Virus record (IMG/VR): IMGVR_UViG_3300027026_000014
Location: 1,586-65,585 of that record
Reading direction: 5' to 3' (one strand)
Origin: a virus
DNA length: 64,000 nucleotides
Position numbers and translations under genes: made by a program. Position 1 is the stretch's first letter, and every line of letters starts with the position of its first letter. The notes beneath the pieces are model-generated. The model saw nothing but the letters and a program-made list of their open reading frames with translations. It searched no databases and was not told the origin of the DNA. Positions 17,142-62,524 of this stretch are shown here, one piece after another.

Positions 17142-17160
17142 ATATGCGCAATGCATATAT
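17142..17160 (-). promoter_or_regulatory. palindromic operator/promoter motif copy 1 (ATATGCGCAATGCATATAT)
   Basis: Member of 14-copy motif family; lies in 90-bp gap upstream of lysis cassette. Confidence 0.55.
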
Positions 17161-17165
17161 TTTAC

Positions 17166-20100
17166 TTAGAGAGCCAATTCATTTTCGAGCCAATCACTCA
17201 GCCACGGTACCTGGTTGAATACCGGGAGTGACCGTTTAATTTTTGGGTAGGTCTCCTCGCCAGTCAGCAGCTGGTGCACATGCTGAATCGCCGGTCCGGC
17301 CACCGACGCCGCCGCACTGTCCGCAGAGTCAAAGCGAGTAGTGCCCAGTGCCAGTTCCAGCGGGCCGTAGATGCCCGCGCGGGAGACCAGCTGCTTGGTG
17401 TACTGCCAGCCGTCGAGGCGGTTGGTCGGCTCGTCCTCCTCCTCGTACTGGATCTCCTCGCGCAGTTCCAGCCCAAGGGCCGCCAGTGGCAGCAGCAACG
17501 TCCCCGCCGCCAGCGCCGGCAATGCGGCGTCGGTCAGCTTTGCCGCGGTGGAGCCGCCGCGCTCGCCGTAGCGGTTGCCAACCTCACGCGCAATACCGCC
17601 CAGCACCACCTTGCCATAGGAGTAGAAAAACGACTTCAACTGCCAGAACAGCATGTACCACGGGTTGCTGGCCCACACCGGACGCTGCGCCGCGTTCGGG
17701 CGCACGATGGACTCGTCCGTGTACTTGATAATCGCCGACTGCATCGCATTGGTGAGCGCCTGCATGTCCTGGTTCTGGTCCGGACTCCACGCCGGTGAGC
17801 CCAGTGCCTCCCAGTTCAGCACCTGTTCCGCAGTAATCCCCAGCTCATCCAGATAACGCTGCGCCCTTACATCACCGCGGTTGGCCTTGCGCGCGCTCGA
17901 GACAATGAAGCGCTCGCCCATCGCCGCCGCCAGGGTGCGGGTGAAGTTGGTCAGCATTTCCTGCCCGTTCAATTTGAACAGGGTCTCGGTCACCTTCTGC
18001 GCTCCAGCACTGGCATACGCCTGGCCGTACATTTCCTTCAGGGCGTGGTGCGTCATGCGCTGGTTCACCACGCCCATATCGCGGGCAAACTCGCGGGCGT
18101 CACCGTAGTTGCGGATCACCCTTACCGCCGTCTTCATGTTGGCCCACATTTCGTCGAGATCCCTGGCGCGGAAAATCGGCCCGGCCAGATCCGGCAATGA
18201 GGCCACGGCACTGAACAGCAGCGTCAGGGTCGATTCAAACACCTGCGCGTAGCTGAACGCCTTGCGTGCAACCGGCGGCATATCGGCGCCCAAACGGCCC
18301 ATGTAACCGTCCAGGATCACGCGGGCGCGGGTCTGGTTCGCATGGCTGTCCAGCTCACCGATCATGCGCTCGATCTTGGCGCTGGGGCTGTACCAGAACG
18401 CGAAGTCGCCGTCCGGACGCAGGTAACCGTACTCTATCGCCCGCTGCGCCATGGTGTTGAAGTCATCGCTGGTCAGGTCACCGCGCCCGGCCTGGATCAG
18501 CTTGGCCCGCAGGATATCCTTGTTGTTCGGGCTCTCGCGCAGGCCGCCGTCACTCTCCGGGTTCGGGTCCCAGCCAGTAATCGGCAGATAGTCGTGGAAC
18601 ATACCCTCGAACTCCGCCCGGGCAGTGGCCGAGTAGATGTAGTGCTCCAGCACCTGCTCCGGGTCACTGAACAGGAAGCCGCCATCGCGCAGTGCTGCCG
18701 CCACTTCCGGCTGGGTCAACTGGCGCTGGCTGCGGCTGTCCATACCTGGGCCGGTGGCGTGGGTGAATTCCGGCAGCGCAAATTCGTACCCCCCGGCACC
18801 ATTCAGGATGGCCTGGCGGATACTCTGCGCTTCATCGCGGCGGAAGGCACCGGTGGATTCCAGGGCGTCATAGAACGCCTCGGGATCAGATTCCAAGCGC
18901 TCGATGTTGTACATACGCGGGAAATACACCGGCAGGCGGCCGATGGTGCGCATCCGGGGTTTCAGATACTCGTCGCGGAAATGGTGCATCCACTCGTTGA
19001 TCAAGCGGGCATCGTCCGAGAGGTTGTTGGCTGCCTCCTCGGTGGTGTCGCTACCCTGCAGTTCCTCCAGCGCCGCCATATAGCGCTCGGTATCACCCCC
19101 GAACACGTCTTCTTTCAAGCGGCGCACCTGTTCCAGCCACTGGGCGCGGGCCACTTCGCGGCGGTGGAAGAAAGCGGGGCTGCGCACCCGGTCACCTGCC
19201 TGATGGAAAAAGGCGTTGGCCAAGCGCTTGCCGGCCGCTCCCATAACCCGCAGCTGGCGGTCGGCGGTGAACAACACCGGTACCGCCTTGATGGTGCCGT
19301 TATAAAAATTCTTGGTGCGCTCCCACATGCGGTTGGCAATACCCGGGCGCAGCTCATTGCGGATCGCCTCCGCCAGTGCATTGGGGGCAAAGGGCAATGG
19401 CGCCCTCCCCTCACCGTTCCCTTGCGGCCGATACTTGCCTTCCGCCATATCACGCGCAAAACGTTCCACCATGTAGCGCAGATCATTGCGGGTCAGGTTA
19501 ATACTGAAACCCAACTTGCGCAGTTGCGCGCGCAGCCACGACAGCACGCGCTGACTGAACGGCATAGGGCTATCGCTCTCGGCCACCCGCGCCAGTACTT
19601 CTTCAAGGTTGGCGTCGGTCAGTTCGGTACCGTAGGCCGGGGCCACGTGGTCCCGGTGGTAGGTCTGTAGTTCGGGATCGCTGGCGAGCGCCTTGCGTAG
19701 GTCGCGGAAGAATCGCGCGCGGGCTTCCGGCGCCATGGTGTCCAGTTGGAAGTGCGCAAACGCCTCGTGTTTCAGCGCCGATTCAATCTCTGCCGCTGGC
19801 ATCCGCTCGGCGAAGACCTGAATACGATTCTCGCCCGGCACATAATGCGCGGCACGACCGTCATCGAAGTTCAACCCGGCTTCCTGGTAGTCGGAATACA
19901 CCTCGATATCCAAATGCGCCAGGCCGGGGTACTGCTGTTGGAAACGCGCCACCGCCCGCTGCGCCTGCGCCAGCGTCATGCTGCCGGCACGCTTGGGGAT
20001 ATTTGGGCGCGTCATGGGGTCCGCCACTTCACGGTCGAGCTTGCGCTCCCTGTCCGGGTTGTAATTTTCAACACCGGATTCTCCGGAGATCTCCGCAACA

Positions 20101-23100
20101 TCGGTTTTGTCGTCGAAATAGGTTACGTCCCGTGAGGGGCGTCCAGTACGCTCGCTCACATAGTCATAACCTGCCTCCAGGCGCTGGTCGATCGCTTCCA
20201 GTTGCCGTTCGAGGTTGCTGATCTGTTCGGTGTAGCGTGCCTTGGCTTTTTCACTGGGCGCCTGCGAGCGCCAGCCGTACAGCTTGTTCAATTGCGCCGA
20301 TAATTTCGCGCGCTGACGCTCCAATCGGGTCAACCCCTGCTGGCCGTGCTGGGCCTCCTTGCGGGTTTTCAGTACATCCTTCACCCGGATTGGTTTTTCC
20401 GTATTGGAGATAACCAGCTCAGGGTTCAGGTTGGCCAGATTGAACGCGTCCTGGGTCAGCGGCTCTGCGGTAACCGGGTCAATGGTGGTACGGCCCATAT
20501 TCACCGGCTCCAAACCACGTACATAAAGCTCGGCCATGCCCGCCAGAAAATATTGGGAGTAGCTCTCCGGGCTGGACGTCTGGTCGTTGTCCATGGCCAA
20601 CCGCATACCGTATTCCGCGATGGTCGGGGTGTGCATCCATATGGTCTCACCGGACCCCGAATCGCGGAATTGCAGAACCTTGTTTGATTCGTCCTTGCGC
20701 CCCTTACGCGCCGCATTCCGTGCCTTGGTGGCGTTGTCCATCATTTTCGGCAGCATCGCATTCAGGCCTGACTCGGTGCCGAACACATCCGGATTGACCT
20801 GCTCGGGACGCTGGAAGCGGCGCACGACGAATTGACCGTCATCGTCGGCCTCAGCGAAGAACTCACTGTCCGGGTACTGCGCACTCAATGTGTCGATCTG
20901 TGCCTGTGCTTCCCGCAGTGACGGGTAGGTCAGCGGGCGCGCTTCAAGGCGGAAGGTAGGTTTGCCACGCTCGGAGCGTTGGCCTGTGGCTACCGGCACA
21001 AATTCGCGGGTTGGGAATTGGGCCTGTAGGGAGGCAATGGCATCGGCAAGGCGCTTGCCAAAAAGCGGCGGCTGCCGGCGTGCAGCATCGTCGGCTTTCT
21101 CGTCCGGGTCGTTCTGCTCGATGTCGACCAGACTGAATCCTGCGGCGTATTCGAACTCCTGCGCCTGCTCGTCGGTAATGGTTTCATCCGGAGAACGCAC
21201 GCGGGCGTCCGCTACGCCCAGCGGATTGAATTTGGCAGTGACCGAAGCGTAGTCTTCGCCGTCATCGAACAGCTCGCGCTGTTGGGAATCTTTTGCGGCA
21301 GTGGGCGCACTCTGCGGCTCCTCGGCGGGATTCAGGGTGCGCCAGTCCACCCGCTCACCAAACAGGTCGTGCGACGGGGGGATGATCGGGCGGTTTACTC
21401 CTTGAGCTGTTCCCGCTGACGCCGGGCGCCTTCCATCAATAGCTTCCGGCTGTGATCCAGATGCGCCCGGAACTCCTGTGGCGTCGGCGGCTTGATCCCC
21501 TCCCTCTCGGCCATCGCCACGTGACGCTTGTAGCTCTCCAGTTCCAGCCCGTTCAATTCCAGATAGTCTTCGCTCATCCTCTACCCTCTGCTGCCGCTCC
21601 GCCTGGGCAGACAGGGGGTCAGTGACCTCCACTACCTCGCCCGGCTGGGTCGCGGCTTCTTGTTGTTCCGCAACGGCGGCCGCCCGGTCGGCGTCCACCA
21701 CTTCAGCGGTGATAATATTACCCTCGTCATCCCGGGTCTGCACCACCGCGGTATTGGCCGGGTCGGCCAATTCAGACTTCGACTGCGCGTAGCCCAGCAC
21801 CCTCGCGCGCATATCGTCCCGCTGCGATGGGGGCGCATCCCGGTATGTCTGCCCATCGAACTCGCCCCGCACCAGCAGTACCCCTTCCGCAGTTTCCAAC
21901 AACTGCACATCCTCGGGGTGCGCCACGGCCTGCACCCGTGCCAGTACGTCAGGGTTTGCCCGGGATACAAAGAACGCATTTTTGCGGCCGCGGTTAAACT
22001 CCCGGTATTGGGCACGCAGATCCCCCACCGGCTCTGCGGTGGTGATTGCATTGATTTCCTCGACCTCGCTGGCCACCGGGGCGGGTGCCGGTGGCACGTC
22101 GATGGCTTCAACCTGTTCAGGTACCAGTTCGGTCGCCGTCGGCGCAGTCGGTAGTGGCGCTTCCAGAGACAGTACCTCCTCCGCCTGCGGCGCCGGCGCA
22201 TTGACCGGCTCATCCAGGTTCAGCCCCAATTGGTTGCCGCCACTCTGTACGGCCGCTGCCTTGCGAGCTTCCTCGACGAACAGATCGCCCTGCGCCAGAT
22301 TCACTTCCAGCGCCGTAGCAGTCGGCTCCGCGGGTGCGTCCTGCGGTACGGCCGGGGCGAAAGTGTTGTTGACCGAGTGCTCGAACATATCCAGCTGGCC
22401 TTCGGGCAACGCGCGCAGATCCAGTTCGCCCTGTTCCGGTATCTCACGGGGCGTGAAGCTGTTTCGGGCCTCGACAACCTCCGGTTGCTCCTCGAATCGC
22501 CCGTCTTCCTCCGCGCGGCGGAAGTACCGATTGCGCACCGCCTGATAGCCTGTGGGCAGGTTCGCCGCCGTAGACAGTCCGCCACCCACGGCCGCCCCTT
22601 TGGCGATTGCGGTTTTAAGTTCGCTGATACGTTCAGGATCAAATAGGTCCTGGCCGGTATGCGCCGAGACCGTAATAAAGTCCATGATGGTCTGCAGCCC
22701 CTCGGTGCCGCCCTCAACCACCGTCTGCATGCCTACGCGCTGGGCAACATCGGTAAAAGCACTGCGGATATCCTCCGGGGTTCGGCGCAGGCTGCGCGCC
22801 GCACCGCGCACCAGCATGTCCATCGGGGCGTATTCCAGCGCGGTTTTCGGGACACCTGTCAGCAGTGCAGCAGAAGTATCCTCCACACCGGCCTGTTGCA
22901 ATTCGGTAGCCGTCTCACCGGCAGACTGCGCATAGATATTCGCCAATGCCCCCGCTTTGGCTGTAGCCATCGGCAGTTCACGGATGCGTTTTTTCAGCAG
23001 CTCGCGCTGCTCCACCGGCATACGACGTAGCAGGGATTTGGTGAACTGCCGTTGGGCCGTGCGGCGGGCGGCCACTGCGCCGACACCGGCACCTGTGGCC

Positions 23101-23822
23101 GCCATGGCCAGGTCGCCCATCAGCTGCGGAGCCTGTTCCCCCAGTGCTTCCACAAAAAAGGTGAAAGCGGAATCCAGGTCATCGACGTCGTCCCATGACT
23201 GGATCTCCGCCGGGTTCAGCGCCGCCTCTTTGAAGTTGCGACGGATACCCTCCTCACCCCATTCCGACAGCATGTCAAAACCGGTCAGGTCGGCCACCGA
23301 CTTGGCCATGCCGTAATACATGCCCTGCATCTGGTTACCGCCGCGGGCGAACGCTTTTTCGAAGGTGCCGTGCCGGTTCTGGTTGTAGTTGGACTCGTCG
23401 TGGATACCCGCCTCGATAATTGCCGCATTACGCGCACGCTCCGCCGCGGTACCGGGGAGAATACCCTGCTCGGCATCGCGGCCACCGGCGAACTGTTCGA
23501 ACGCCAGATTCTCATCCTGCCCGAACTGCGCGGTAGCCAGGCCCTCGCGCACCAGGGCGGATTCCAGATCGCGTTGGTCAGGGTCACTGACCTCGGCCAG
23601 GGTGCGGCCGTAGCCGTCGGTCCCGGTGGGGTCGACGGTGGCGCCGCCGCGTACGAACTGCTCGGTGAACTGCCGGGCTTCTTCGCCTAGCAATTGGCCG
23701 TCGCCGCGACCGTGGTCAATCTCCGGGGTATTGATGCGGTTTAAGCGAATCCGTTCGCCCGAGTTCAGGTCCTCGATGGTATCGCCATCGAGGACGCGGA
23801 AACTGGGGGTATATCCGGCCAT
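17166..23822 (-). CDS. giant virion-associated protein (2218 aa), N-terminal SNase/thermonuclease-like domain; probable internal/ejection protein
   Basis: N-terminus VLDGDTI...IRLNRINTPEIDHG...GEEA matches staphylococcal-nuclease fold motif; size/position analogous to giant internal proteins of podoviruses; not a tape measure (no sheath/tube genes). Confidence 0.65.
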   Translation of the reverse strand: MAGYTPSFRVLDGDTIEDLNSGERIRLNRINTPEIDHGRGDGQLLGEEARQFTEQFVRGGATVDPTGTDGYGRTLAEVSDPDQRDLESALVREGLATAQFGQDENLAFEQFAGGRDAEQGILPGTAAERARNAAIIEAGIHDESNYNQNRHGTFEKAFARGGNQMQGMYYGMAKSVADLTGFDMLSEWGEEGIRRNFKEAALNPAEIQSWDDVDDLDSAFTFFVEALGEQAPQLMGDLAMAATGAGVGAVAARRTAQRQFTKSLLRRMPVEQRELLKKRIRELPMATAKAGALANIYAQSAGETATELQQAGVEDTSAALLTGVPKTALEYAPMDMLVRGAARSLRRTPEDIRSAFTDVAQRVGMQTVVEGGTEGLQTIMDFITVSAHTGQDLFDPERISELKTAIAKGAAVGGGLSTAANLPTGYQAVRNRYFRRAEEDGRFEEQPEVVEARNSFTPREIPEQGELDLRALPEGQLDMFEHSVNNTFAPAVPQDAPAEPTATALEVNLAQGDLFVEEARKAAAVQSGGNQLGLNLDEPVNAPAPQAEEVLSLEAPLPTAPTATELVPEQVEAIDVPPAPAPVASEVEEINAITTAEPVGDLRAQYREFNRGRKNAFFVSRANPDVLARVQAVAHPEDVQLLETAEGVLLVRGEFDGQTYRDAPPSQRDDMRARVLGYAQSKSELADPANTAVVQTRDDEGNIITAEVVDADRAAAVAEQQEAATQPGEVVEVTDPLSAQAERQQRVEDERRLSGIERAGTGELQASRGDGREGGDQAADATGVPGASGSQPEAIDGRRPASAGTAQGVNRPIIPPSHDLFGERVDWRTLNPAEEPQSAPTAAKDSQQRELFDDGEDYASVTAKFNPLGVADARVRSPDETITDEQAQEFEYAAGFSLVDIEQNDPDEKADDAARRQPPLFGKRLADAIASLQAQFPTREFVPVATGQRSERGKPTFRLEARPLTYPSLREAQAQIDTLSAQYPDSEFFAEADDDGQFVVRRFQRPEQVNPDVFGTESGLNAMLPKMMDNATKARNAARKGRKDESNKVLQFRDSGSGETIWMHTPTIAEYGMRLAMDNDQTSSPESYSQYFLAGMAELYVRGLEPVNMGRTTIDPVTAEPLTQDAFNLANLNPELVISNTEKPIRVKDVLKTRKEAQHGQQGLTRLERQRAKLSAQLNKLYGWRSQAPSEKAKARYTEQISNLERQLEAIDQRLEAGYDYVSERTGRPSRDVTYFDDKTDVAEISGESGVENYNPDRERKLDREVADPMTRPNIPKRAGSMTLAQAQRAVARFQQQYPGLAHLDIEVYSDYQEAGLNFDDGRAAHYVPGENRIQVFAERMPAAEIESALKHEAFAHFQLDTMAPEARARFFRDLRKALASDPELQTYHRDHVAPAYGTELTDANLEEVLARVAESDSPMPFSQRVLSWLRAQLRKLGFSINLTRNDLRYMVERFARDMAEGKYRPQGNGEGRAPLPFAPNALAEAIRNELRPGIANRMWERTKNFYNGTIKAVPVLFTADRQLRVMGAAGKRLANAFFHQAGDRVRSPAFFHRREVARAQWLEQVRRLKEDVFGGDTERYMAALEELQGSDTTEEAANNLSDDARLINEWMHHFRDEYLKPRMRTIGRLPVYFPRMYNIERLESDPEAFYDALESTGAFRRDEAQSIRQAILNGAGGYEFALPEFTHATGPGMDSRSQRQLTQPEVAAALRDGGFLFSDPEQVLEHYIYSATARAEFEGMFHDYLPITGWDPNPESDGGLRESPNNKDILRAKLIQAGRGDLTSDDFNTMAQRAIEYGYLRPDGDFAFWYSPSAKIERMIGELDSHANQTRARVILDGYMGRLGADMPPVARKAFSYAQVFESTLTLLFSAVASLPDLAGPIFRARDLDEMWANMKTAVRVIRNYGDAREFARDMGVVNQRMTHHALKEMYGQAYASAGAQKVTETLFKLNGQEMLTNFTRTLAAAMGERFIVSSARKANRGDVRAQRYLDELGITAEQVLNWEALGSPAWSPDQNQDMQALTNAMQSAIIKYTDESIVRPNAAQRPVWASNPWYMLFWQLKSFFYSYGKVVLGGIAREVGNRYGERGGSTAAKLTDAALPALAAGTLLLPLAALGLELREEIQYEEEDEPTNRLDGWQYTKQLVSRAGIYGPLELALGTTRFDSADSAAASVAGPAIQHVHQLLTGEETYPKIKRSLPVFNQVPWLSDWLENELAL

Positions 23823-30602: not shown

Positions 30603-30621
30603 ATATATGCAATGCATATAT
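30603..30621 (-). promoter_or_regulatory. palindromic operator/promoter motif copy 2 (ATATATGCAATGCATATAT) within TTGAAT-N17-ATATAT promoter for capsid gene
   Basis: Reverse complement gives TTGAAT, 17-nt spacer containing palindrome, ATATAT. Confidence 0.6.
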
Positions 30622-30635: not shown

Positions 30636-30665
30636 AAAGACCCGGGAGTTTTCTCCCGGGCCAAG
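30636..30665 (-). terminator. rho-independent terminator after scaffold gene (CCCGGGAG-AAAA-CTCCCGGG + T6)
   Basis: Perfect 8-bp stem followed by TCTTTTTT in minus-strand transcript. Confidence 0.55.
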
Positions 30666-30698: not shown

Positions 30699-31730
30699 TT
30701 AGTTAAAATCACCGCGCAGACGGCGCAGTTCCGTTTCGGTCAGATTGTCGAATTCCGCTTCCGTCAGCTCCATCACATTGACACTCGTCTCCTGCGCCGC
30801 ACGTGTAGTGCGCTCCCCACCCATCGCCGGTGGCTGTGCCGCGGCCGCCTGCACATTGCGCTCCACTGGGGTCGTGCGGGGTGCCGGTGTAGGTACCGGT
30901 GGCTGCGGGGTCGGCGGTTCCAGCAGTTCCGGGCGATGTAGTTTCACTACGTCTTCCGCCGCCTGTAGGACCGCATTCGCCGGGGAGTAGCCCTGGTTGA
31001 TATACGCATCGCGGAACACCTGGACCTTGCCCACCAGCTCTGCGTCAAAGCTGTCCGAGGTCGCGTCAAAGAATTCGAACTTCGCCTCGAGTTCATCCAC
31101 TGCCGCGTCATAGGCTTGCTGCTCGGTGCGCTTAGTTACGGTCTGGTCCGCTTCCTGCTGCGCCACACTGCGGCCGTATTCGATCAGTTTCTGATTCAGC
31201 TCCAACTGCTTGGCAGCTGCCTCGGCACTCTTGCCGTCCAGGATCAGTTCGTTGATCTCGGTCTGCAGCTGCACCATCTGATCATTCAGGTCGGCCTGCT
31301 GCTGGGTTCCCGGCGCCTGGCCCTGCTCCGGGTTGGCCGACTGCATCCGGGCTTCCAGCTCCGCGATCCGGCGCTTGGCCGCATCCAGTTGGCGGCGGCT
31401 TTGGTCGAAGCGCGCCTTCGGAATCATGATGTCCTTTTCGCGCTCGAGCTTGGCCGGGTCCACCTGATCCGCTGGTGGGTCTTCCGCGGGGGGATCTTCG
31501 GCAGGCGGATTCTCCGCGGGCGGATCTTCAGTAGGAGGGTCCTCTGCGGGGGGATCTTCCACAGGGGGATTTTCTGCCGACGGGTCCTGCGGGTCAGGTT
31601 CTTCTACCGGGGTTGCCGGTTCCAGGTTGTCGCCGCGGTCGGCCTCGCCGCCGCCGTGGTCCCAATCATCGTCAGCGCCAGGGAGGATGTCGGAAAAATT
31701 CATTGGCTGAAGGTCAGTTTCAGTGCCCAT
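30699..31730 (-). CDS. scaffolding protein
   Basis: 343 aa, highly acidic N-terminus with PAEDPP repeats, long coiled-coil, located between portal and capsid. Confidence 0.6.
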   Translation of the reverse strand: MGTETDLQPMNFSDILPGADDDWDHGGGEADRGDNLEPATPVEEPDPQDPSAENPPVEDPPAEDPPTEDPPAENPPAEDPPAEDPPADQVDPAKLEREKDIMIPKARFDQSRRQLDAAKRRIAELEARMQSANPEQGQAPGTQQQADLNDQMVQLQTEINELILDGKSAEAAAKQLELNQKLIEYGRSVAQQEADQTVTKRTEQQAYDAAVDELEAKFEFFDATSDSFDAELVGKVQVFRDAYINQGYSPANAVLQAAEDVVKLHRPELLEPPTPQPPVPTPAPRTTPVERNVQAAAAQPPAMGGERTTRAAQETSVNVMELTEAEFDNLTETELRRLRGDFN

Positions 31731-33817: not shown

Positions 33818-33836
33818 GTATGCGCATTGCGTATAT
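33818..33836 (-). promoter_or_regulatory. palindromic operator/promoter motif copy 3 (GTATGCGCATTGCGTATAT)
   Basis: Upstream of portal gene start. Confidence 0.5.
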
Positions 33837-37025: not shown

Positions 37026-37026
37026 A

Positions 37027-37463: not shown

Positions 37464-37469
37464 CGAGTC

Positions 37470-45320: not shown

Positions 45321-45330
45321 TCGGCCCCAC

Positions 45331-45350: not shown

Positions 45351-45423
45351 ACACCGGAGACCGCTGGCCACGGTCCCCGGGTATCAAACCTAAGGCCAAA
45401 GATCACAACAGAGGATTACATCC

Positions 45424-45636: not shown

Positions 45637-45667
45637 CCCTACCGGCCAGGGCCGCTGCTACCGGCCC

Positions 45668-45759
45668 CCAATACTCGCTCCGTGCGGGTATTGGAAACCC
45701 CCCAAAACCTGAGCCCGAGTTGGCGACCGGGAATTCGCCCTCAGCGGCGGGGGGTTTCC
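45668..45759 (+). promoter_or_regulatory. structured intergenic element between Ubl and E1 genes: 7-bp hairpin CCAATAC/GTATTGG nested next to perfect 11-bp inverted repeat GGAAACCCCCC ... GGGGGGTTTCC (44-nt loop)
   Basis: Sequence; only long gap in an otherwise overlapping operon. Confidence 0.4.
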
Positions 45760-45788
45760 AATATCCGCACCACAATTGGAAGGAAACC

Positions 45789-46469: not shown

Positions 46470-47539
46470 TGACCGCTCTGACCAAATTGCCGGCAAAGAC
46501 ATCGGCCAAAAAACCGACCAACAAAACACCGGCCAAACCAAAACGCCAGTTCAAGTACCCAGTGAAGTCCAGCGATACTCTGCGCAAATCCACACCGCTG
46601 GTAGTACCTGCACCGCCGACGGCGCCGACCGTGTTCTACACACCACGCGCCTGGGAAATCATCCGTTTTCTGATCGATTACAACGAGGAAGAAGTCGGTT
46701 GGCTGGGCACCGTTGACCAGCTGGACGATGGCAATCTGTTGATCGATGAGATATTTGTCCCCAAGCAACGCGTGCACGGCACCGAGACCGAAATCGACAC
46801 CGACGACTACCACCGCCTGTGCAACGAGTTGCTGGACACCGACCGTTACGCTGACAGCAAGGGGCGCCCGCGCCTCATCTACTGGGGCCACTCCCACGTG
46901 GACATGGGGGTCTCCCCCTCCGCACAAGATGAAGAACAGGTGGCCGAGTACCTGGAAGAAGTTCCCCTTTTCATCCGTGGCATTTACAACAAAAAAGGGG
47001 CCTCTAAAGTCGATGTGTACGACGTTAACGCCAACCTGATCCATCAATGTGTGGATGAGCGCATCCAGCACAATGCCCTGAGCCCGGAGGACCGCGCCGA
47101 ACTCAAGGCACTGGTCGATCGCAACGTGCTGCCCGCCCGCGACAACTGGTCAGATCTGCGCAACTGGAACGACCAGTGGCAAGGCTACAGAAGCCTCTTT
47201 GACGAGGATGATGATTTCCTCCCGGGCAATGGCAGTCAGACCATTCGCGACTGCTTCGCTGTCGGATACCCACCGGCCTACGTAGTCAATTACACCCCGG
47301 CCATCAGCGCGTTCGACGAAGAACGCCTGCGCGAAGAATTGGAAGGTCTCGGCGTAGCCCCGGATGTAGAGGAATGGAGTCTCTATACCGCCGACCCGGA
47401 AGACCCGCGTCTTACTGATCTGAGCGACCTGGAAATCATTTACTACGGCACCGTGCTCGGCGATGACTGGCTCGACGCCATTATGCCGTGGCACCAGCGC
47501 GAGGAAGCAGACAACGACGCCCCCAAACTTGCGAGCTAA
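46469..47539 (+). CDS. JAB/JAMM (MPN+) metallopeptidase domain protein with ~170-aa C-terminal extension
   Basis: E(EEVGWLG)...WGHSHVDMGVSPSAQD = E...HxH...S..D JAMM zinc motif; start overlaps E1 stop (TGATG). Confidence 0.75.
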   Translation: MTALTKLPAKTSAKKPTNKTPAKPKRQFKYPVKSSDTLRKSTPLVVPAPPTAPTVFYTPRAWEIIRFLIDYNEEEVGWLGTVDQLDDGNLLIDEIFVPKQRVHGTETEIDTDDYHRLCNELLDTDRYADSKGRPRLIYWGHSHVDMGVSPSAQDEEQVAEYLEEVPLFIRGIYNKKGASKVDVYDVNANLIHQCVDERIQHNALSPEDRAELKALVDRNVLPARDNWSDLRNWNDQWQGYRSLFDEDDDFLPGNGSQTIRDCFAVGYPPAYVVNYTPAISAFDEERLREELEGLGVAPDVEEWSLYTADPEDPRLTDLSDLEIIYYGTVLGDDWLDAIMPWHQREEADNDAPKLAS

Positions 47540-47554
47540 TCGAGGATTCCACCC

Positions 47555-49318
47555 ATGCCGGGATTAACCGCCGAACTGATCGCGATCGATGAATACGATC
47601 GCATCGAAGACTGCGCCATCGTCGCCACAACTGCCGACCCACTGGCCCCAGGCGACTATGTCCTCACCGCTAACCTGAGCCAGGCTCAGTATGAATATGT
47701 GGCGAGTGCCTTTATGCAATTGCGCGGGCACGGACCTACCGCCTTCGACGAAGGCCCCGAATATAACCACTGGCGCAACTACCGCGCTTATGCCTGGGTC
47801 GCCACCAACGATTCCCTGTTGAACCTGCAGATCGATGAAGATGTCCACCGACGTGAGCGCACCCTGCGTGATCTGGAAATCCTCACCGGTCGGCCCGCCC
47901 CCCAACAGGACGAAGCCCAGCCCCGCGAACCCGAACCTGTAACCCGCAACCCGGAACCCCCGGTTATCCACTTCGATCCGACACAGCTGCGGAAGGAAGA
48001 ACTGATCACCGCCCGTGATCAGCAACACCGCACCATCCGAAATTACCGGCGCGACCTCGCCTACCTGCGGGAGACCATAAAAGAACACGAGCAGTGGATC
48101 GCCATGAATGAAGAATGGCAAAACCTGCCGGAAACCGCTCTGTCAGAGGCACTCCGGAACTATATCCGCGATAAAGCATTTAGCCCGGGTGATGTTCTCT
48201 ACCGCACCAATGAACATCATCGCCTGGTCACCCAACTTGCGGATACCGAGCGGAACATCCGCCACGCCGCCAATTTACTACTGAATCACAGCCGCGAACA
48301 CGCGCGGCTGCGGGGCAACCCACTCACCTTCACCGTCGAAGGTATGGATGTGGAACTACAGAACATCCCACAATATGTCCCGGGCAGCGTGCGGATCGAT
48401 GCCGCCGAACACACAATCAGCTGGGTTCTGACCGGTGTCCTGATGCAGCCGGATAACAACCCGTACCGCTGGCTGAACGGCGGGACCATACCCACCATCC
48501 GGCTACCAGATACCCGTGTGATATTGCGTTTTCAGGATAATGGGGCCGTAAACGTCTATCTCAAGTTCCCCACAGACGAATCGCCAAGATGTGCCCCTAC
48601 AGGCTATGCCGGCCACGGCACACCGCATCCGCACGTACTGAACCGCTACGCCCCCTGCCTGGGCGATTTCGAGGGCGCCGTCACCAATGCCGCGCAATCC
48701 GGAGATCTGCGTACTGCGAACGATATCCTGCTGGCCTTCCTGGGCCAGGCGTACAACGCCGACTCCGCTGGCATGGAATGGTGGCGCTGGGCCCTGACGG
48801 ACTGGGATTCCCCGGAGGAGTACCCCTGGTTTGAAGTTGGGGATCACCGCGGCAACGAAGACTATTTCTGGGACAGCAGCAGCGGCAAGAACCTGAATGC
48901 CCGACTCGATGCCGAAGGTAACCTGACCCTGAATTGGGTCGAACATACCGGAGGCAACCGCGGTTTCGATCAGCTGTGTGGGAGCGAACGGTGCGATCAC
49001 TCAGAAGACGAGTATCAGGATGACGACGGTGATATTCGCTGCAACCACTGCGACGCTCTGACTTGGGGCGAAGGCCGCTATCACGGGGATTGCGACTGCT
49101 GCGAAGACTGTCAGAACGAGCATTGCACCTGCTGCGGTATCTGTGATGGTACGGATCGCGACGAGTGTGGATGCTGCACCAACTGCGAGAACGTCGAGGG
49201 CGAGTGCACATGCTGCCCTATCTGCGATACCTCCGACCGCGACGAATGCGGTTGCTGCCAGGAGTGCGGTGACACGGATGCTGACACCTGCGGATGCCAC
49301 ACATCAGAAAACGAATAA
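47555..49318 (+). CDS. large hypothetical protein (587 aa) with C-terminal tandem Cys-rich repeats (C.CC.ICD..DRDECGCC)
   Basis: 15-nt spacing after JAB gene; C-terminus CTCCGICDGTDRDECGCCTNCENVEGECTCCPICDTSDRDECGCCQECGDTDADTCGCH. Confidence 0.6.
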   Translation: MPGLTAELIAIDEYDRIEDCAIVATTADPLAPGDYVLTANLSQAQYEYVASAFMQLRGHGPTAFDEGPEYNHWRNYRAYAWVATNDSLLNLQIDEDVHRRERTLRDLEILTGRPAPQQDEAQPREPEPVTRNPEPPVIHFDPTQLRKEELITARDQQHRTIRNYRRDLAYLRETIKEHEQWIAMNEEWQNLPETALSEALRNYIRDKAFSPGDVLYRTNEHHRLVTQLADTERNIRHAANLLLNHSREHARLRGNPLTFTVEGMDVELQNIPQYVPGSVRIDAAEHTISWVLTGVLMQPDNNPYRWLNGGTIPTIRLPDTRVILRFQDNGAVNVYLKFPTDESPRCAPTGYAGHGTPHPHVLNRYAPCLGDFEGAVTNAAQSGDLRTANDILLAFLGQAYNADSAGMEWWRWALTDWDSPEEYPWFEVGDHRGNEDYFWDSSSGKNLNARLDAEGNLTLNWVEHTGGNRGFDQLCGSERCDHSEDEYQDDDGDIRCNHCDALTWGEGRYHGDCDCCEDCQNEHCTCCGICDGTDRDECGCCTNCENVEGECTCCPICDTSDRDECGCCQECGDTDADTCGCHTSENE

Positions 49319-49419: not shown

Positions 49420-49710
49420 TTGTCACATTGGTCAGACTACTCCTATAATCCAAAACCGGCCATCCACAGGCCGATGTCTTACCTAAGGATTACAGGAACA
49501 ATAACCGTGGAAAACAAAGCGATCTTAAAAGCCAATCATTACAACCGTATGCAAGCCTTCCAGTGGATCTACGAACATCCGACCACCGCCGTCGGCATCC
49601 TCTGTCAGATGCTCGAGAATGACCAGCTGGACGAACGCACCATCGGCGAGTTACAGCAACTCCACCTGCGCCTCGGCTCGTTCATGCAGCGCTCGCTACG
49701 CGGTTATTAG
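49420..49710 (+). CDS. hypothetical protein (≤96 aa; true start uncertain)
   Basis: ORF only. Confidence 0.3.
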   Translation: MSHWSDYSYNPKPAIHRPMSYLRITGTITVENKAILKANHYNRMQAFQWIYEHPTTAVGILCQMLENDQLDERTIGELQQLHLRLGSFMQRSLRGY

Positions 49711-49731: not shown

Positions 49732-49752
49732 GATATACACAATGCACATATC
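49732..49752 (+). promoter_or_regulatory. palindromic operator/promoter motif copy 9 (GATATACACAATGCACATATC; arms extend CAGGATAT/ATATCCTG)
   Basis: 25 bp upstream of 49779 start. Confidence 0.5.
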
Positions 49753-50764: not shown

Positions 50765-50772
50765 CCTCAATT

Positions 50773-50789
50773 ATATACATTGCGTATAT
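50773..50789 (+). promoter_or_regulatory. palindromic operator/promoter motif copy 10 inside TTGACC(50761-50766)-N17/18-TATATT promoter for DNA polymerase gene
   Basis: Sequence. Confidence 0.65.
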
Positions 50790-52834: not shown

Positions 52835-53023
52835 ATGCTGAAAGAAAAAAATGGACGTCTACTCATCGGCCGTAAACGTGATCAACGCGTTCGCGTGAAG
52901 CTGGATGACCAGGAACTGTGGATTCGCGTTGTCGAGACCCGCGGTTCTCATGGTGTCTGCCTGGAATTTGAAGGCCCCACAAGCATTGAGATTTTGCGTG
53001 AGGAGCTGATCAATGGCAGATGA
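52835..53023 (+). CDS. small basic protein (62 aa), possible regulator
   Basis: ORF; AAGGAGAG upstream. Confidence 0.3.
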   Translation: MLKEKNGRLLIGRKRDQRVRVKLDDQELWIRVVETRGSHGVCLEFEGPTSIEILREELINGR

Positions 53024-57906: not shown

Positions 57907-59277
57907 ATGAAACTTGAACTCTACACCCACCAGAAACTCACCAGTGAATTCCTGCAGCGCACGCCGCGGGGGTTCATCACCAGCGACCCCGGTACCGGTA
58001 AAACGTCCAGCTGCCTCGATGCGGTGCTGGCGGCAATTGAAGAAGATCCGGAAACCCGGGTTCTGGTCCTGGCACCGCTGTCAATCCTGGAACCCGCCTG
58101 GGGTGGCGATATCCGCAAGTTCACCGACCTCAGCTACCGTATTGCCCACGGCACACCGAAGAAGCGCGAAGAAGCCATGCGCTCCGCCAGCCGCATCGTC
58201 ATCACCAACCATGATGCGGTGAACTGGATCGCCAAGGACCCGACCCTGTACAGTGGTTTCACCCACCTCATCATCGATGAGTTCACCGCGTACAAAAACC
58301 GCGCTACCCAACGCTCCAAGGCACTACAGAAAATCGCCTACAAGATCCCGCACCTATGGATGCTATCCGGTACCCCGACCAGTAACTCAGTGACCGATAT
58401 CTGGTTCCCGGGCCTGCTGGTGGATCAGGGCCAGCGACTGGGCCCAAATTTCTTCCGCTTCCGCGAGCAGGTTCAGAGCCCAATACAAACCGGCCCAGAT
58501 CCCATGCACCGCAAATGGGAAGATAAAGCCGGTGCCCAGGAAGCCGTAGCCGACCGGCTCAAGGACATCACCATCCGCTTCCGCTTCGAGGACTGCGTCG
58601 ATATCCCGCCGAACGTACACCACACGATCGAACTGGAAATGCCCGCCTGGCTGCGCAAAAAATACGTCGAGTTCGAAAAGACCGATTGGCTGGTGACCGA
58701 GAATGGAACCGTCAACACCGTGCACGCCAGCGCTCGTGTGCGCAAATTGCTACAGATGCTTTCCGGTGCGGTGTACGACACCGACGGCAAGCCGATCAAG
58801 GTACACAACGAGCGCTACGAACTGGTACTCGGGCTGATCGAGGAGCGCGAACAGTGTGTCGTCGCCTTCAACTGGAAACACGAGTTGGAAGCACTTAAAG
58901 CCGAAGCCGATAAACGCGGGCTCTCTTATGGCGTCATTAACGGAGACACCCCTTCCCGGGAACGGGTGCGCATCGTTGACGAATTCCAGGCCGGTCGCCT
59001 GCGCATCGTGTTCGCGCACCCACAGTCAGCCGGCCACGGCCTGACCCTGACACGCGGCACCACCACCATCTGGTGTAGCCCGACTTACAACGGTGAGCAC
59101 TTCGAACAGTTCAACGCGCGCATCTATCGTACCGGGCAAACTCGAAAGACCGAAACTATACGCATTGCATATAGCGATTCGAAAGAAATCGAGGTATATT
59201 CAGCGCTCGACAAGAAATTGACGGGCATGAACGACCTCCTGGATCTGTTCCAACAACTCAGCACTCAGGCTGCATAG
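57907..59277 (+). CDS. SNF2-family DNA helicase/translocase
   Basis: Walker A DPGTGKTS, DExx box LIIDEF, LSGTP motif, motif VI QSAGHGLTLTRGTT...GQTR. Confidence 0.8.
   Translation: MKLELYTHQKLTSEFLQRTPRGFITSDPGTGKTSSCLDAVLAAIEEDPETRVLVLAPLSILEPAWGGDIRKFTDLSYRIAHGTPKKREEAMRSASRIVITNHDAVNWIAKDPTLYSGFTHLIIDEFTAYKNRATQRSKALQKIAYKIPHLWMLSGTPTSNSVTDIWFPGLLVDQGQRLGPNFFRFREQVQSPIQTGPDPMHRKWEDKAGAQEAVADRLKDITIRFRFEDCVDIPPNVHHTIELEMPAWLRKKYVEFEKTDWLVTENGTVNTVHASARVRKLLQMLSGAVYDTDGKPIKVHNERYELVLGLIEEREQCVVAFNWKHELEALKAEADKRGLSYGVINGDTPSRERVRIVDEFQAGRLRIVFAHPQSAGHGLTLTRGTTTIWCSPTYNGEHFEQFNARIYRTGQTRKTETIRIAYSDSKEIEVYSALDKKLTGMNDLLDLFQQLSTQAA
59166..59184 (+). promoter_or_regulatory. palindromic operator/promoter motif copy 11 (CTATACGCATTGCATATAG) embedded in 3' end of SNF2 coding sequence
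   Basis: Sequence. Confidence 0.45.
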
Positions 59278-59699: not shown

Positions 59700-59718
59700 C
59701 TATACACATTGCATATAG
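59700..59718 (+). promoter_or_regulatory. palindromic operator/promoter motif copy 12 (CTATACACATTGCATATAG)
   Basis: Immediately upstream of 59730 gene. Confidence 0.5.
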
Positions 59719-59729
59719 AGAAACTTCGA

Positions 59730-60404
59730 ATGACAGAAACAGCTCTCGCCATTTTCGGTTCCGACACTAATGCCCTGCCCGCCCACCTGCAGGAGGCCAT
59801 GGAGCGCGACCGCGCCCTGGGTAACGAAAACGTCTCTGCAGAAGATCAGGCAGTCCCCCGCATTTCCCTGCTGCAAGCCCTGAGCCCTCAGATCGACGAC
59901 GTCGAGGGCGCACGCCCAGGTCAATTCCATATCAGCACCACTAACGAACTGGTGGATAGCCTCATGGTGATCAACCTGGCCTTCCGCAAGGAATGGGCCG
60001 TGTTTAAAGACAAGGATCTGGGAGGCGGTTTTAACGGCTCCTACGAATCCGAAGCCGCAGCGCGTGCGCACGTGGATACCCTGCCCGGCAACGCCTCCGA
60101 CTACCAAATCATCGAGACCGCCAAGCACGCCCTGCTGGTGCTGGACGAAGAAGGTAATCCGGCCTACCCGGCGGAAATGTTTTTCAAATCCTCGGCCCTG
60201 AATCAGAGCCGCAAATGGAACAGCGAGATCAGCATCAAGAATGGTAATGCCCCGCGTTTTGCCACCGTCTGGAAGCTGTCCCCACTGAAGCGCAAAAACG
60301 ACCGTGGTACCTGGTACGTACCCCAGACCGAGTTCCTGGGTTACGCCCCCGAAGCCCTGTACAACGAAGCGAAGGCACTCTACACCGCCATCGCCCCCAA
60401 GTAA
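59730..60404 (+). CDS. hypothetical protein (224 aa)
   Basis: ORF. Confidence 0.45.
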   Translation: MTETALAIFGSDTNALPAHLQEAMERDRALGNENVSAEDQAVPRISLLQALSPQIDDVEGARPGQFHISTTNELVDSLMVINLAFRKEWAVFKDKDLGGGFNGSYESEAAARAHVDTLPGNASDYQIIETAKHALLVLDEEGNPAYPAEMFFKSSALNQSRKWNSEISIKNGNAPRFATVWKLSPLKRKNDRGTWYVPQTEFLGYAPEALYNEAKALYTAIAPK

Positions 60405-61672: not shown

Positions 61673-61698
61673 TATTTACATATACAATGTAAATATTT
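61673..61698 (+). promoter_or_regulatory. divergent copy 13 of palindromic motif (TATTTACATATACAATGTAAATATTT) upstream of repressor gene
   Basis: Palindrome ATTTACAT-ATACA-ATGTAAAT sharing the TATACAATG core. Confidence 0.4.
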
Positions 61699-61742: not shown

Positions 61743-62450
61743 ATGACGGCAGAAATTAGACGGATTGTTACTCCTCAAGACCGGGAAGCCGCCCGTCGAC
61801 TCAAGCAATTGTTTGAGCAGAAAAAATATACCGATGGATTGACCCAGGTAGAGTTGGCGCGGCGGACCGGAATCCCCCAACCCAACCTAAGCCAATACAT
61901 GAACGGGGTGATTGCCCTGAAAAATGCCGACACGGTTTTTAACCTGGCTAATGCCTTAGGCGTTAACCCCGCAGAAATCGACCCAAGATTTGAAGCACGT
62001 TACAAGTCGGTCGAGGTTAAAGAACAAAACAATCTACCCCTGAAATCCATGTCGAGCGGTGAGCCCTACGATGTGCAGAAACGCACACGGGTAAACACGG
62101 AGGCCCTACCCACGGCCTACGGTATCGTCGTCGACACAGCGACTTACGCACCTATCTATCAACGCGACGATATTCTGGTTGCAGACTCCAAAGCGCTATT
62201 ACGCATCGACCGTACAGTCGCGGTCCAGTACAACAACCGGGAACCAAGATTTTATCTCTACCGGTTACTGAATGTGACCAACCGTGGGATTGAAGTAACC
62301 AGCATCCCCGGTGGCCGCGAAATCATGGAGGATGCCACTGTCTCCCGTCGGGCAGCGCTTGAGGAGTTCTTCCCTTCCGAGAGCATTACGATCCTGCTCG
62401 CGGATCTGAAACATTGCCACCGCGTGCGCATGGTGGACGAAAAGAACTGA
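61743..62450 (+). CDS. HTH (XRE/CI-like) transcriptional repressor with C-terminal domain
   Basis: LTQVELARRTGIPQPNLSQYMNG helix-turn-helix; 235 aa CI-like two-domain size. Confidence 0.6.
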   Translation: MTAEIRRIVTPQDREAARRLKQLFEQKKYTDGLTQVELARRTGIPQPNLSQYMNGVIALKNADTVFNLANALGVNPAEIDPRFEARYKSVEVKEQNNLPLKSMSSGEPYDVQKRTRVNTEALPTAYGIVVDTATYAPIYQRDDILVADSKALLRIDRTVAVQYNNREPRFYLYRLLNVTNRGIEVTSIPGGREIMEDATVSRRAALEEFFPSESITILLADLKHCHRVRMVDEKN

Positions 62451-62467: not shown

Positions 62468-62497
62468 CTACCCCACCCTTGAGGTGGGGTATTTTTT
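62468..62497 (+). terminator. rho-independent terminator CCCCACCC-TTGA-GGTGGGG + TATTTTTT
   Basis: Sequence. Confidence 0.55.
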
Positions 62498-62505
62498 CCC
62501 GGAGA

Positions 62506-62524
62506 ATATATACAATGCATATAC
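62506..62524 (+). promoter_or_regulatory. palindromic operator/promoter motif copy 14 (ATATATACAATGCATATAC)
   Basis: 50 bp upstream of 62573 gene. Confidence 0.55.

Follow-up and report, generated by a model that had tools for sequence, protein, structure and literature searches.

Fifteen dispersed copies of a 17-bp palindrome in a tRNA-His prophage as candidate operators of a lambda-CI-type repressor

An AT-rich palindrome recurs upstream of genes on both arms of a prophage, which raises the question of what reads it: a repressor of the phage, another phage or host regulator, or an RNA polymerase. The window analyzed here is a stretch of viral DNA of 64,000 nt. A first-pass annotation of the letters listed 14 copies and assigned them to a single dimeric DNA-binding protein, possibly the repressor encoded at 61743 or one of the small early proteins. 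All 14 copies were found again, within 0 to 9 nt of where it had placed them. It had missed a 15th copy at 3850 and the limits of the prophage. The prophage is 61.8 kb long (3.7–65.5 kb), and its limits are set by a 51-bp att repeat in tRNA-His; the right-hand repeat (attR, 65449–65499) is the 3' part of tRNA-His and lies beyond the window (L039). The features are listed in Table 1.

Table 1. Attachment site, palindrome copies and candidate repressor gene in the window
Feature	Coordinates	Strand	Sequence	Remarks
attL, 51-bp direct repeat	3678–3728	.		identical to 65449–65499 (attR)
Palindrome copy 15	3850–3866	.	TATACGCATTGCGCATC	PWM 19.3 bits; just inside attL
Palindrome	17143–17159	.	TATGCGCAATGCATATA	66 nt upstream of leftward lysis cassette (16789–17076)
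Perfect palindrome	30604–30620	.	TATATGCAATGCATATA	upstream of major capsid gene; spacer and -10 of TTGAAT-18-TATATT
Palindrome	33819–33835	.	TATGCGCATTGCGTATA	26 nt upstream of portal gene
Palindrome	37028–37044	.		spacer and -10 of TTGACA-16-TATACT (37053–37026, minus strand); directly upstream of terS
Palindrome	39745–39761	.	TATACTCATTGCATATA	rightward arm start; overlaps -10 of two promoter-like matches (9/12)
Palindrome	42168–42184	.	TATATACATTGCATATA	32 nt upstream of SPFH-like gene (42217)
Palindrome	44005–44021	.		33 nt before 421-aa gene; within spacer and -10 of TTGACG-18-TATATT
Palindrome	45333–45349	.	TATACGCAATGCGAATA	74 nt upstream of ubiquitin-like (ThiS) gene
Palindrome	49734–49750	.	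TATACACAATGCACATA	28 nt upstream of ATG at 49779
Palindrome	50772–50788	.		28 nt before polA (family A DNA polymerase); within spacer and -10 of TTGACC-18-TATATT
Palindrome	59157–59173	.	TATACGCATTGCATATA	within 3' end of SNF2 helicase ORF; 112 nt before next gene
Palindrome	59701–59717	.		12 nt upstream of Pam3_Gp34-like gene (ATG 59730)
Palindrome	61679–61695	.	CATATACAATGTAAATA	21.3 bits, lowest of the 14 reported copies; 47 nt upstream of CI-like gene
Lambda-CI-type repressor, 235 aa	61743–62450	+		HTH_3 N-terminal domain, beta-rich C-terminal domain
Palindrome	62507–62523	.		directly after terminator of CI-like gene (62469–62491)

The palindrome is 17 bp long and has the consensus TATAYRCAWTGYRTATA. 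The literal pattern first proposed (TATATRCNNNGYATATA) captured a real palindrome, but it is matched exactly at only four places (0 expected by chance); allowing up to three mismatches raises the count to 20, where 1.55 are expected. A symmetrised PWM was scanned over 82.4 kb, consisting of the window and the contig flanks. The 14 copies reported earlier score 21.3 to 30.7 bits, and all 15 fall between 19 and 31 bits compared with 7.7 bits for the best other position. The sites are spread over 58.7 kb and both arms, always singly and never in tandem. All 15 lie within the prophage and none was found in about 20.5 kb of host flank. If the genes are taken from a crude automatic set, 12 of the 15 copies are located in non-coding DNA, which makes up 9.9% of the prophage (P = 3e-10). 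With curated gene starts this rises to 14 of 15, and the copy at 59157 (SNF2) is the only one clearly within an ORF, as was originally noted. An Rfam search of the window gave no matches.

Each copy has 5 to 8 of its 8 dyad base pairs complementary. The gene-proximal and distal TATA arms are equally conserved. Only the proximal arm could act as a -10 element. Positions 5 and 13 vary independently in seven of the 15 copies, the arm changes are not compensatory, and the hairpin energies are weak (-1.8 to -5.4 kcal/mol). The equal conservation of the arms, the absence of compensatory change and the weak hairpins together point to a dimer that reads double-stranded DNA.

Near-consensus sigma-70 promoters with the palindrome in the spacer and -10 element were found on both arms, at four of the 15 copies (terS, 44005, polA and the capsid gene). 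The same four promoters had been recognized before; the spacer is 18 bp, not 17 bp, at polA, 44005 and the capsid gene. A -35 hexamer matching at least five of six positions and located 16 to 18 bp from the proximal arm is present at four palindromes (chance about 1e-5), and the whole window contains five TATA positions with such a -35, four of which are palindromes. At the strong promoters the palindrome is centered near -17, which is a repressing position. Weaker promoter-like matches overlap three more copies. The palindrome at 61679 covers the -35 and spacer of TTTACA-17-TAGACT, and a weak match (TCGAAA-18-TAAAAT) abuts the one at 17143. The statement that essentially every phage promoter carries the palindrome was too strong. 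About seven of the 15 sites overlap a recognisable sigma-70-like promoter and about eight do not, a strong promoter-like match at 49420–49449 has no palindrome nearby, and neither the operon at 38426 nor the first genes of the leftward arm (37050–37997) are preceded by one. The distance to the start codon varies from about 8 to 153 nt (three copies are only 8–12 nt away), a wider range than the 20–65 bp given before. The capsid palindrome is preceded by a terminator (30639–30662). The copy at 62507 is located 49 nt upstream of an operon with a dGTP_diPhyd_N-domain gene, a DNA methylase, DUF4224 and the integrase. An 84-aa HTH-looking gene (3878), whose product has no match in Pfam, has its ATG 11 nt after the copy at 3850.

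The best candidate for the binding protein is the CI-like repressor encoded at 61743. It matches Pfam HTH_3 (8e-10) and, by phmmer against the PDB, lambda CI (E 5e-7). BLASTP aligns it to lambda CI with 37% identity over 76 aa, and the identity of the N-terminal domain to lambda CI is 34–37%. Foldseek searches with the AF2 model (pLDDT 91.7) returned lambda CI, a lambda-186 hybrid repressor and LexA. The model superposes on the lambda CI N-terminal domain with an rmsd of 1.4 Å (TM 0.85), and at full length it can be aligned over some 240 columns with lambda CI (E 1e-7) and with LexA (E 1e-4). Q35, Q46 and N54 are the equivalents of lambda Gln33, Gln44 and Asn52, and Q35 and Q46 are nearly invariant in 33 homologues. 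The basic arm is conserved, with RR6-7 aligned to the lysines (KK) of the lambda arm. The C-terminal domain has no Pfam S24 match and no PDB sequence match, and by eye the catalytic Ser position is occupied by Ala. The gene points the same way as the rightward (lytic) arm, and no cro-like gene diverges from it. Pfam recognized no other DNA-binding regulator in the prophage.

In syntenic prophages the repressor shows 28–35% sequence identity to the 61743 protein. The motif search of related prophages proposed in the first-pass annotation turned up variant palindromes in five of them (L127, L128, L129, L130 and L133), each beside the repressor gene of that prophage. In each, the variant 17-bp palindrome is found directly after the terminator of the repressor gene, in synteny with the copy at 62507. 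A sixth syntenic prophage has the outer half-sites only. L127 (7930) and L128 (7643) carry a site before a Pam3_Gp34 homologue, syntenic with the copy at 59701, and L127 and L133 also have a palindrome upstream of the repressor gene. The half-site reads TATAYRCA here and TATAGGCA or TATWAGCA in the relatives. The variants share the outer TAT and the core GCAWTGC with the present palindrome. Positions 4–6 and the repressor recognition helix differ, and the divergence amounts to just two to three positions of the half-site. Two recognition helices of divergent repressors are QPNLSQY and QPTVAQY. The CI-like gene is the one constant neighbor of the palindromes in all short contigs of the relatives. 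From our reading of the sequences, the geometry of promoter and palindrome in the relatives differs from that here.

No palindrome or comparable motif was found in the lytic relative KPP25, and none of 81 loci of distant relatives has more than one palindrome. Recurrent 10-mers in distant loci were considered as dispersed promoter motifs and rejected as tandem coding repeats or iteron-like arrays. The exact 17-mer gave 37 single scattered matches in IMG/VR and no contig with multiple copies. A megablast search with the structural region found no match among 50,697 phage records. The primase has one distant match in GTDB genomes and 80 loci in IMG/VR, all with about 34% identity; polA matches two short contigs in JGI metagenomes (37% identity). 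A word-indexed protein search with the repressor returned the query alone, and a search of IMG/VR with the Pam3_Gp34 alignment found nothing. The clade has no cultured representative and is known solely from metagenome contigs and MAGs, so that the regulatory map offers a first functional access to it.

Could a different phage protein bind the palindromes? It might be a Cro-like or early regulator among the small ORFs, many of which have no family assignment, or the 84-aa protein at 3878, whose gene starts so close to a palindrome, and it might serve the lytic phase rather than immunity. The palindrome core changes little among the relatives although their CI-like proteins are only about 30% identical, so another, more conserved protein could be the reader. 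We consider this unlikely: no second protein has a detectable DNA-binding domain, the CI-like gene constantly adjoins the palindromes in the short contigs of the relatives, and a 17-bp dyad starting with TAT suits a lambda-type N-terminal domain. It is very unlikely that the palindrome is a phage-specific promoter element that marks transcription starts, whether its reader were a sigma-like factor encoded by the phage, an RNA polymerase or a host polymerase in modified form. The distal TATA arm is conserved as well as the proximal one, which would not be needed if the reader were a monomer (a sigma factor or an RNA polymerase). Near-consensus host -35 hexamers are already present at the strongest sites, the promoter geometry is not kept in the relatives, and the start-codon distance varies widely. 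The proximal arm does resemble a -10 hexamer, genes on both arms have a palindrome upstream, in several cases right after a terminator, and three large early proteins (421, 387 and 587 aa) have no clear function. However, no RNA polymerase or sigma domain was found among the prophage proteins, and the 387-aa protein is JAB-like with ThiS- and ThiF-like neighbors.

Less probable still is a recruited host transcription factor (as with LexA or Fur in some phages), in which case the palindrome would be its box. An AT-rich palindrome of such a length would be typical of a host regulator box, and the host DNA scanned is limited to about 20 kb, but about five sites would be expected there at the prophage density and none is present. 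The syntenic variant palindromes are found in prophages of hosts with a different GC content (48–53%, compared with about 58% here), and the exact 17-mer matches in IMG/VR are single and scattered. To our knowledge, no host regulator box has this consensus. The poorest candidate, to which we give hardly any weight, is a DNA structure or another DNA transaction, such as an N4-type cruciform or hairpin promoter, a nick or packaging signal, a replication site or a C5 methylase target. The prophage does encode a C5 DNA methylase and a 2218-aa virion protein, and a 7-bp stem with a 3-nt loop is formally possible. The hairpin or cruciform was rejected on energy and on the absent compensatory change. 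A virion RNA polymerase inside the 2218-aa protein was also rejected, as this protein matches staphylococcal nuclease and virion-protein families only. The tie of the palindromes to gene starts and promoters would be unexpected for nicking, packaging or replication signals.

We conclude that the 15 palindromes are probably the operators of one phage-encoded dimeric repressor, the lambda-CI-type protein at 61743–62450 being the most probable one. Dispersed operators, as the first-pass annotation had suggested, that are read by this repressor give the best account of the dyad symmetry, the confinement to the prophage, the promoter overlap, the CI fold and the variants in relatives; from these features we infer that the protein binds the palindromes and represses through binding. 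Each monomer would read one 8-bp half-site (TATAYRCA) via its helix-turn-helix and N-terminal arm. At terS, the capsid gene, polA and the 44055 operon, where the operator fills the spacer and -10, a bound dimer would exclude the host sigma-70 RNA polymerase. If each operon is driven by its own host-type promoter, an operator would be needed at each. Immunity would then be distributed over the early, replication, integration/excision, packaging, head and lysis units, and the palindrome at 61679, over the repressor's own promoter, may provide negative autoregulation. Palindromes with no recognisable promoter (59157, 59701, 45333, 33819 and 3850) may lie over weak promoters or serve as roadblocks. 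If the immunity repressor silenced late genes directly, the temporal order after induction would lack an explanation.

A more far-reaching proposal is possible but doubtful. In a temperate relative of KPP25-like podoviruses, a dimeric repressor of the lambda CI type might directly gate every temporal gene class through single operators in host-type promoters, without a transcriptional cascade. The affinity of the operators and the strength of the promoters would determine the timing after induction, the promoter-less copies would be elongation roadblocks, and a stoperator-like strategy would have evolved independently from a classical CI scaffold in a Gram-negative phage lineage. The gene classes gated in this way include capsid, packaging, lysis and integrase/excision. 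If one CI-type repressor does act on about 15 single operators, lysogenic silencing would take place without the usual early-to-late cascade. The 17-bp operator, its natural variants (each paired with a divergent recognition helix) and the graded promoters make up a parts list for experiments and synthetic circuits, and the variant operator-repressor pairs form a test bed for the evolution of CI-type immunity specificities.

In phage lambda the operators are 17-bp dyads, in which two half-sites beginning with TAT surround a central odd base pair. The operators proposed here are likewise 17 bp and two-fold symmetric around an odd base pair with TAT-starting half-sites, and the candidate repressor shares with lambda CI a homologous N-terminal domain, the conserved contact residues and the basic arm. 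Lambda has two clusters of three tandem operators, whereas 15 single sites are spread over 62 kb in this prophage. Unlike in lambda, sites are found at late structural, lysis and integrase operons and there is no divergent cro partner; unlike in lambda CI, no S24 catalytic dyad was detected.

P1 C1 is not related to the HTH_3 lambda-type repressors and binds in monomeric form, and the P1 late genes are controlled indirectly through Lpa. P1 has 22 dispersed 17-bp C1 operators, which are asymmetric (ATTGCTCTAATAAATTT) (PMC8546580). The earlier description of the present arrangement as P1 C1-like holds for many dispersed 17-bp operators under one repressor (a single binder being presumed here); it does not extend to the operators themselves, asymmetric in P1 (PMC8546580) and palindromic here. 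In this prophage the late promoters themselves bear the palindrome and the candidate binder is of the lambda type, unlike in P1.

Cluster A mycobacteriophages (L5, Bxb1) carry many repressor sites, placed genome-wide both at promoters and in the short gaps between genes (PMC9283540). The L5 sites are asymmetric 13-mers oriented with transcription, and a monomer binds them via an HTH and a "stoperator" domain (PMC9283540). About half of the palindromes described here are promoter-less and could likewise block elongation. They differ from the L5 sites in being symmetric 17-mers, and the candidate repressor is a lambda/LexA two-domain protein. In the Streptomyces phage phiC31, 17-bp conserved inverted repeats (CIRs) at many intergenic loci are bound by the phage repressor, and the early promoters form a class of their own that is specific to the phage. 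Its repressor belongs to another family, and its host to another phylum, than in the present prophage. The proposed system would thus resemble P1 C1, L5 and phiC31 in the way it works without belonging to any of these families. If the proposed regulation is true, it would be a Gram-negative, symmetric-operator addition to the few dispersed-operator systems (P1, cluster A mycobacteriophages and phiC31). The dispersed-operator layout is already known in other phages and is unusual for a lambda-CI-like repressor.

The first-pass annotation had described 14 copies of a palindrome on phage promoters, and the palindrome itself is confirmed. Its literal pattern, TATATRCNNNGYATATA, gives four exact matches where none is expected by chance, and 20 matches with up to three mismatches against 1.55 expected. 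Alignment of the copies with their flanks yielded the 17-bp dyad consensus TATAYRCAWTGYRTATA, in which variation is nearly absent from the core CAWTG and the two TATA arms, and the flanks are nearly information-free. A symmetrised position weight matrix (PWM) was scanned over 82.4 kb, comprising the window and adjoining parts of the source contig (ENA ERZ508520 NODE_91, 130 kb). All 14 copies were recovered with 21.3 to 30.7 bits, their starts 0 to 9 nt from the earlier figures, and one more was detected at 3850-3866 (19.3 bits). The best-scoring non-site position reaches 7.7 bits.

A 51-bp exact direct repeat is present at 3678-3728 (attL) and 65449-65499 (attR, beyond the window end; 13707-13757 of L039, the stretch to its right); the attR copy is the 3' portion of a tRNA-His gene. 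These limits give a prophage of 61.8 kb (~3.7 to 65.5 kb), which reaches well past the range first annotated. Right of the window lie its genes for a C5 DNA methylase, a DUF4224 protein and a tyrosine integrase; host tRNAs and folD come next. All 15 sites lie within the prophage; the PWM scan found none in the ~20.5 kb of available host flank, where the density within the prophage would predict ~5. On the circular phage genome the rightward arm, split by integration, runs from 39.7 kb through the integrase and attP to 3.9-7.8 kb and has 11 sites; four more are on the leftward arm of structural and lysis genes, which spans 38.0 kb down to 7.8 kb. Using a crude automatic gene set, 12 of the 15 sites fall in non-coding DNA, which makes up 9.9% of the prophage (P = 3e-10). 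With curated gene starts 14 are intergenic, and the copy at 59157, as noticed before, is in the SNF2 ORF, the sole site clearly within an ORF. The phage is a podovirus and distant kin of Pseudomonas phage KPP25, Acidovorax phage AP1 and Aeromonas phage phiA008 (37-43% identity in the portal, 29-31% in the primase).

Coordinates and sequences of the palindrome sites, promoters, related sites and other prophage features
Feature	Coordinates	Sequence or match	Remark
Palindrome sites (starts)	17143, 30604, 33819, 37028, 39745, 42168, 44005, 45333, 49734, 50772, 59157, 59701, 61679, 62507		symmetrised PWM scan
terS promoter		TTGACA-16-TATACT	palindrome in spacer
44005 promoter		TTGACG-18-TATATT	palindrome in spacer
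polA promoter		TTGACC-18-TATATT	palindrome in spacer
Capsid gene promoter		TTGAAT-18-TATATT	palindrome in spacer
Site after repressor gene, window	62507	TATATACAATGCATATA	recognition helix QPNLSQYMN
Site after repressor gene, L127		TATAAGCAATGCTAATA	recognition helix QTAVSQYLR
Site after repressor gene, L128		TATAGGCATTGCGAATG	recognition helix QPTVAQYLN
Site after repressor gene, L130		TATAGGCATTGCCGATA	recognition helix QPSVSQMLS
Site after repressor gene, L133		TATAGGCATTGCAATTA	recognition helix QATVSQYLN
Site after repressor gene, L129		TATCAGCATAGCCAATA	recognition helix QSTISSHMN
Repeat	39101-39131, 39240-39266, 39317-39344	TGGGACATATGGGACAT	inverted at 39420-39441
Repeat	near 38966, 39029, 39218	TGGCCAAAATACC	
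ThiS-like beta-grasp protein	45424-45636	Pfam 2.5e-5	
ThiF/E1-like protein	45720-46469	6e-19	
JAB/MPN protein	46376-47539	HSHVDMGVSPSAQD motif	weak Prok-JAB match
84-aa HTH-looking protein	within 3878-7810		left-end cargo
CoiA-like/DUF6035 nuclease	4535-6289		
AHH-family HNH nuclease toxin	6510-7238		
Probable immunity gene	7235-7810		
2218-aa virion protein	17166-23822, minus strand	staphylococcal-nuclease domain	residues 8-113

The phage's best sigma-70-like matches fall on palindrome sites. At terS, polA, 44005 and the capsid gene, where overlap with spacer and -10 had been recognised before, the spacer is taken up by the palindrome, whose gene-proximal TATA supplies the first bases of the -10 hexamer. 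With a -35 hexamer matching at 5/6 or more positions required 16-18 bp from the proximal arm, four of the 15 sites pass against 0.14 expected by chance (P ~1e-5); in the whole window only five TATA positions have such a -35, four of them at sites. Weaker promoter-like matches overlap 39745 and 17143, and at TTTACA-17-TAGACT the -35 and the spacer are covered by the 61679 site, 47 nt 5' of the repressor gene. No recognisable sigma-70-like promoter is present at eight of the 15 sites. The start codon is 8-12 nt from sites 37028, 59701 and 3850, and several sites lie directly 3' of terminators (62469-62491 and 30639-30662). The palindrome-to-start gaps are short at 37019-37031 (terS), 59714-59732 (Pam3_Gp34-like gene) and 3862-3880 (84-aa gene); should the proximal TATA arm serve as the -10, these three mRNAs would have no leader or almost none. 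The strongest sigma-70-like promoters on both arms carry the palindrome, but the claim that it sits on essentially every promoter was overstated. The top sigma-70-like match of the right arm (49420-49449, TTGTCA-18-TATAAT, 11/12), ~290 bp upstream of the 49734 site, is without a copy and may be a promoter still active in the lysogen. The first leftward genes and the 38426 operon are likewise not preceded by a copy.

Structure at the RNA or DNA level was rejected as an explanation of the element: predicted hairpins are weak (-1.8 to -5.4 kcal/mol), changes at positions 5 and 13 are independent and leave the two non-complementary at seven of the 15 sites, and an Rfam search of the window gave no match. 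A promoter read by a monomeric sigma factor or RNA polymerase was also rejected, because the distal TATA arm is conserved equally with the proximal one though it has no role in the -10 hexamer. Judged by its equal arms, independent variation, weak hairpins and the Rfam result, the palindrome is best read as a putative double-stranded, two-fold symmetric protein-binding site. Its centre at the strong promoters is near -17, a position at which RNA polymerase is excluded. Activators of the classical class I or II type are not known to act from there. MerR-type activators bind the spacer and act at over-long spacers of 19-20 bp, unlike the 16-18 bp found at the strong promoters here.

The candidate binder is the 235-aa product of 61743-62450 (plus strand), the sole prophage protein with a recognised DNA-binding domain. 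Over residues 8-84 it is similar to the N-terminal domain of lambda CI (phmmer 5e-7; BLASTP 37% identity over 76 aa). When 1.8 billion representatives were searched in full with HMMER, 45 homologues fell below 1e-10; those of full length are 28-36% identical. The AlphaFold2 model, built with the homologue alignment as input, is confident (pLDDT 91.7). Its closest structures are a lambda-186 hybrid repressor (E 1e-10), full-length lambda CI (E 1e-7), the lambda N-terminal domain (rmsd 1.4 Å, TM 0.85) and LexA (E 1e-4). Lambda operators are 17-bp dyads with the half-site TATCACCG; in the lambda complex A2 is read by Gln44 with Gln33 support and the inner base pairs by the arm. The half-site here, TATAYRCA, is alike in length, odd central base pair and outer TAT. 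Lambda Gln33, Gln44 and Asn52 have their counterparts in repressor Q35, Q46 and N54, of which Q35 and Q46 are nearly invariant across the repressor family; Arg6-Arg7 fall opposite the lysines in the N-terminal arm of lambda. For the C-terminal domain Pfam gave no S24 match, and a catalytic serine is not apparent in it, which makes RecA-dependent autocleavage doubtful.

Close relatives were not found in phage, IMG/VR, GTDB or JGI collections. The comparison set was a small sample of contigs encoding distant repressor homologues and syntenic with the window, with the common gene order polA, primase, PD-(D/E)XK nuclease, SNF2, DUF7307, Pam3_Gp34, Rv2179c-like exonuclease, repressor, and integrase or an integrase-sized gene. 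In L127, L128, L129, L130 and L133 a related 17-bp site lies directly behind the repressor-gene terminator, ahead of the next gene, and 62507 is its syntenic counterpart in the window. A site also precedes the Pam3_Gp34 homologue in L127 and L128 (position of 59701) and the repressor gene in L127 and L133 (position of 61679). L128 has three more copies with the exact left half TATAGGCA, and the more distant TARA contig L131 has outer half-sites only (ATAGG-N5-CCTAT). Lytic KPP25 has no site, and 81 distant primase-related loci (1.2 Mb) have at most one generic match each vs 13 in the window. Since variant sites occur in synteny beside repressor homologues, the site family goes with the repressor family across hosts that differ in GC content. 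The outer TAT and the core are kept together with the Gln residues and the arm, positions 4-6 and the recognition helix vary, and the operator changes less than the protein. In this small sample the pattern supports, short of proof, the repressor as the binder. The terminator hairpins after the repressor gene in L127 (10705-10721) and L128 (10700-10716), ACCCGGCAATGCCGGGT and TGCCGCATTGCGGCA, hold GCAATGC or GCATTGC, the same core as the operator ~30 bp downstream; this could be either coincidence or a second weak site.

We propose that each palindrome would be bound by one CI-type dimer, which on the spacer and -10 would block sigma-70 holoenzyme at those promoters. Each operon would need its own operator because each has its own host-type promoter. 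The 62573 operon (dGTP_diPhyd_N-domain gene, methylase, DUF4224, integrase) would be silent during lysogeny and freed by induction. The repressor's own promoter lies under the lowest-scoring of the 14 reported sites; this placement suggests that the repressor would hold down its own expression at a level that already saturates the stronger sites. The promoter-less copies may mark weak promoters or act as roadblocks.

The 1.9 kb between the divergent arms (38000-39880) is crowded with other repeat families, including many GGTTC-rich units (GGTTCGGGGTTC, GGTCCTAGGACCG), and also has small membrane-protein ORFs and a terminator (38918-38944); the repeats may be of an iteron or origin type, or may be bound by a second regulator. 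The operon at 44055-49318 resembles a ubiquitin-like conjugation system and is preceded by two palindrome copies (44005, 45333). Its ThiS, ThiF and JAB genes are flanked by those of an uncharacterised 421-aa protein and of a 587-aa protein whose C-terminus is repetitive and rich in Cys. The left-end cargo (3878-7810) is low in GC (0.47 over 4-6 kb) and may be a defence or toxin module. The C-terminal region of the 2218-aa virion protein matches solely 'virion structural protein' PHROGs, and no RNA polymerase signal was found in this protein. A 62-aa ORF directly 3' of the DNA polymerase gene (52835-53023) has a weak CsrA (PF02599) match in precomputed annotation and may encode a carbon-storage-regulator-like RNA-binding protein of the phage. 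In-frame coding repeats are found in two places: a 15-nt unit repeated seven times at 31459-31608 (PPAEDP-type acidic repeat, in the 343-aa gene that lies 5' of the capsid gene) and units of 39-96 nt at 13051-13746 within the 1446-aa tail-fibre gene.

We infer that an uncultured clade of temperate podoviruses uses a CI-type repressor with dispersed operators. This layout is open to experiment, with natural specificity variants at hand, and the dispersed-operator principle has precedent. Protein and operator type are lambda-like; the layout is unlike lambda in that sites are single and dispersed, a divergent cro is absent and late genes are included. Phage phiC31 has 17-bp conserved inverted repeats, to which the present sites may be likened in function. 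P1 C1 has 22 dispersed, asymmetric 17-bp operators (PMC8546580), and the monomeric Cluster A mycobacteriophage repressors have more than 20 asymmetric 13-mers serving as operators and stoperators (PMC9283540). The earlier interpretation, which likened the arrangement to P1 C1, is partly supported as a whole: the likeness to P1 is no more than an analogy, and the symmetric sites place the system outside the P1 family. The asymmetric sites and monomeric repressors that define the P1 and L5 families are not matched here, and the system therefore appears to work like them in its dispersed operators rather than to be a member of either.
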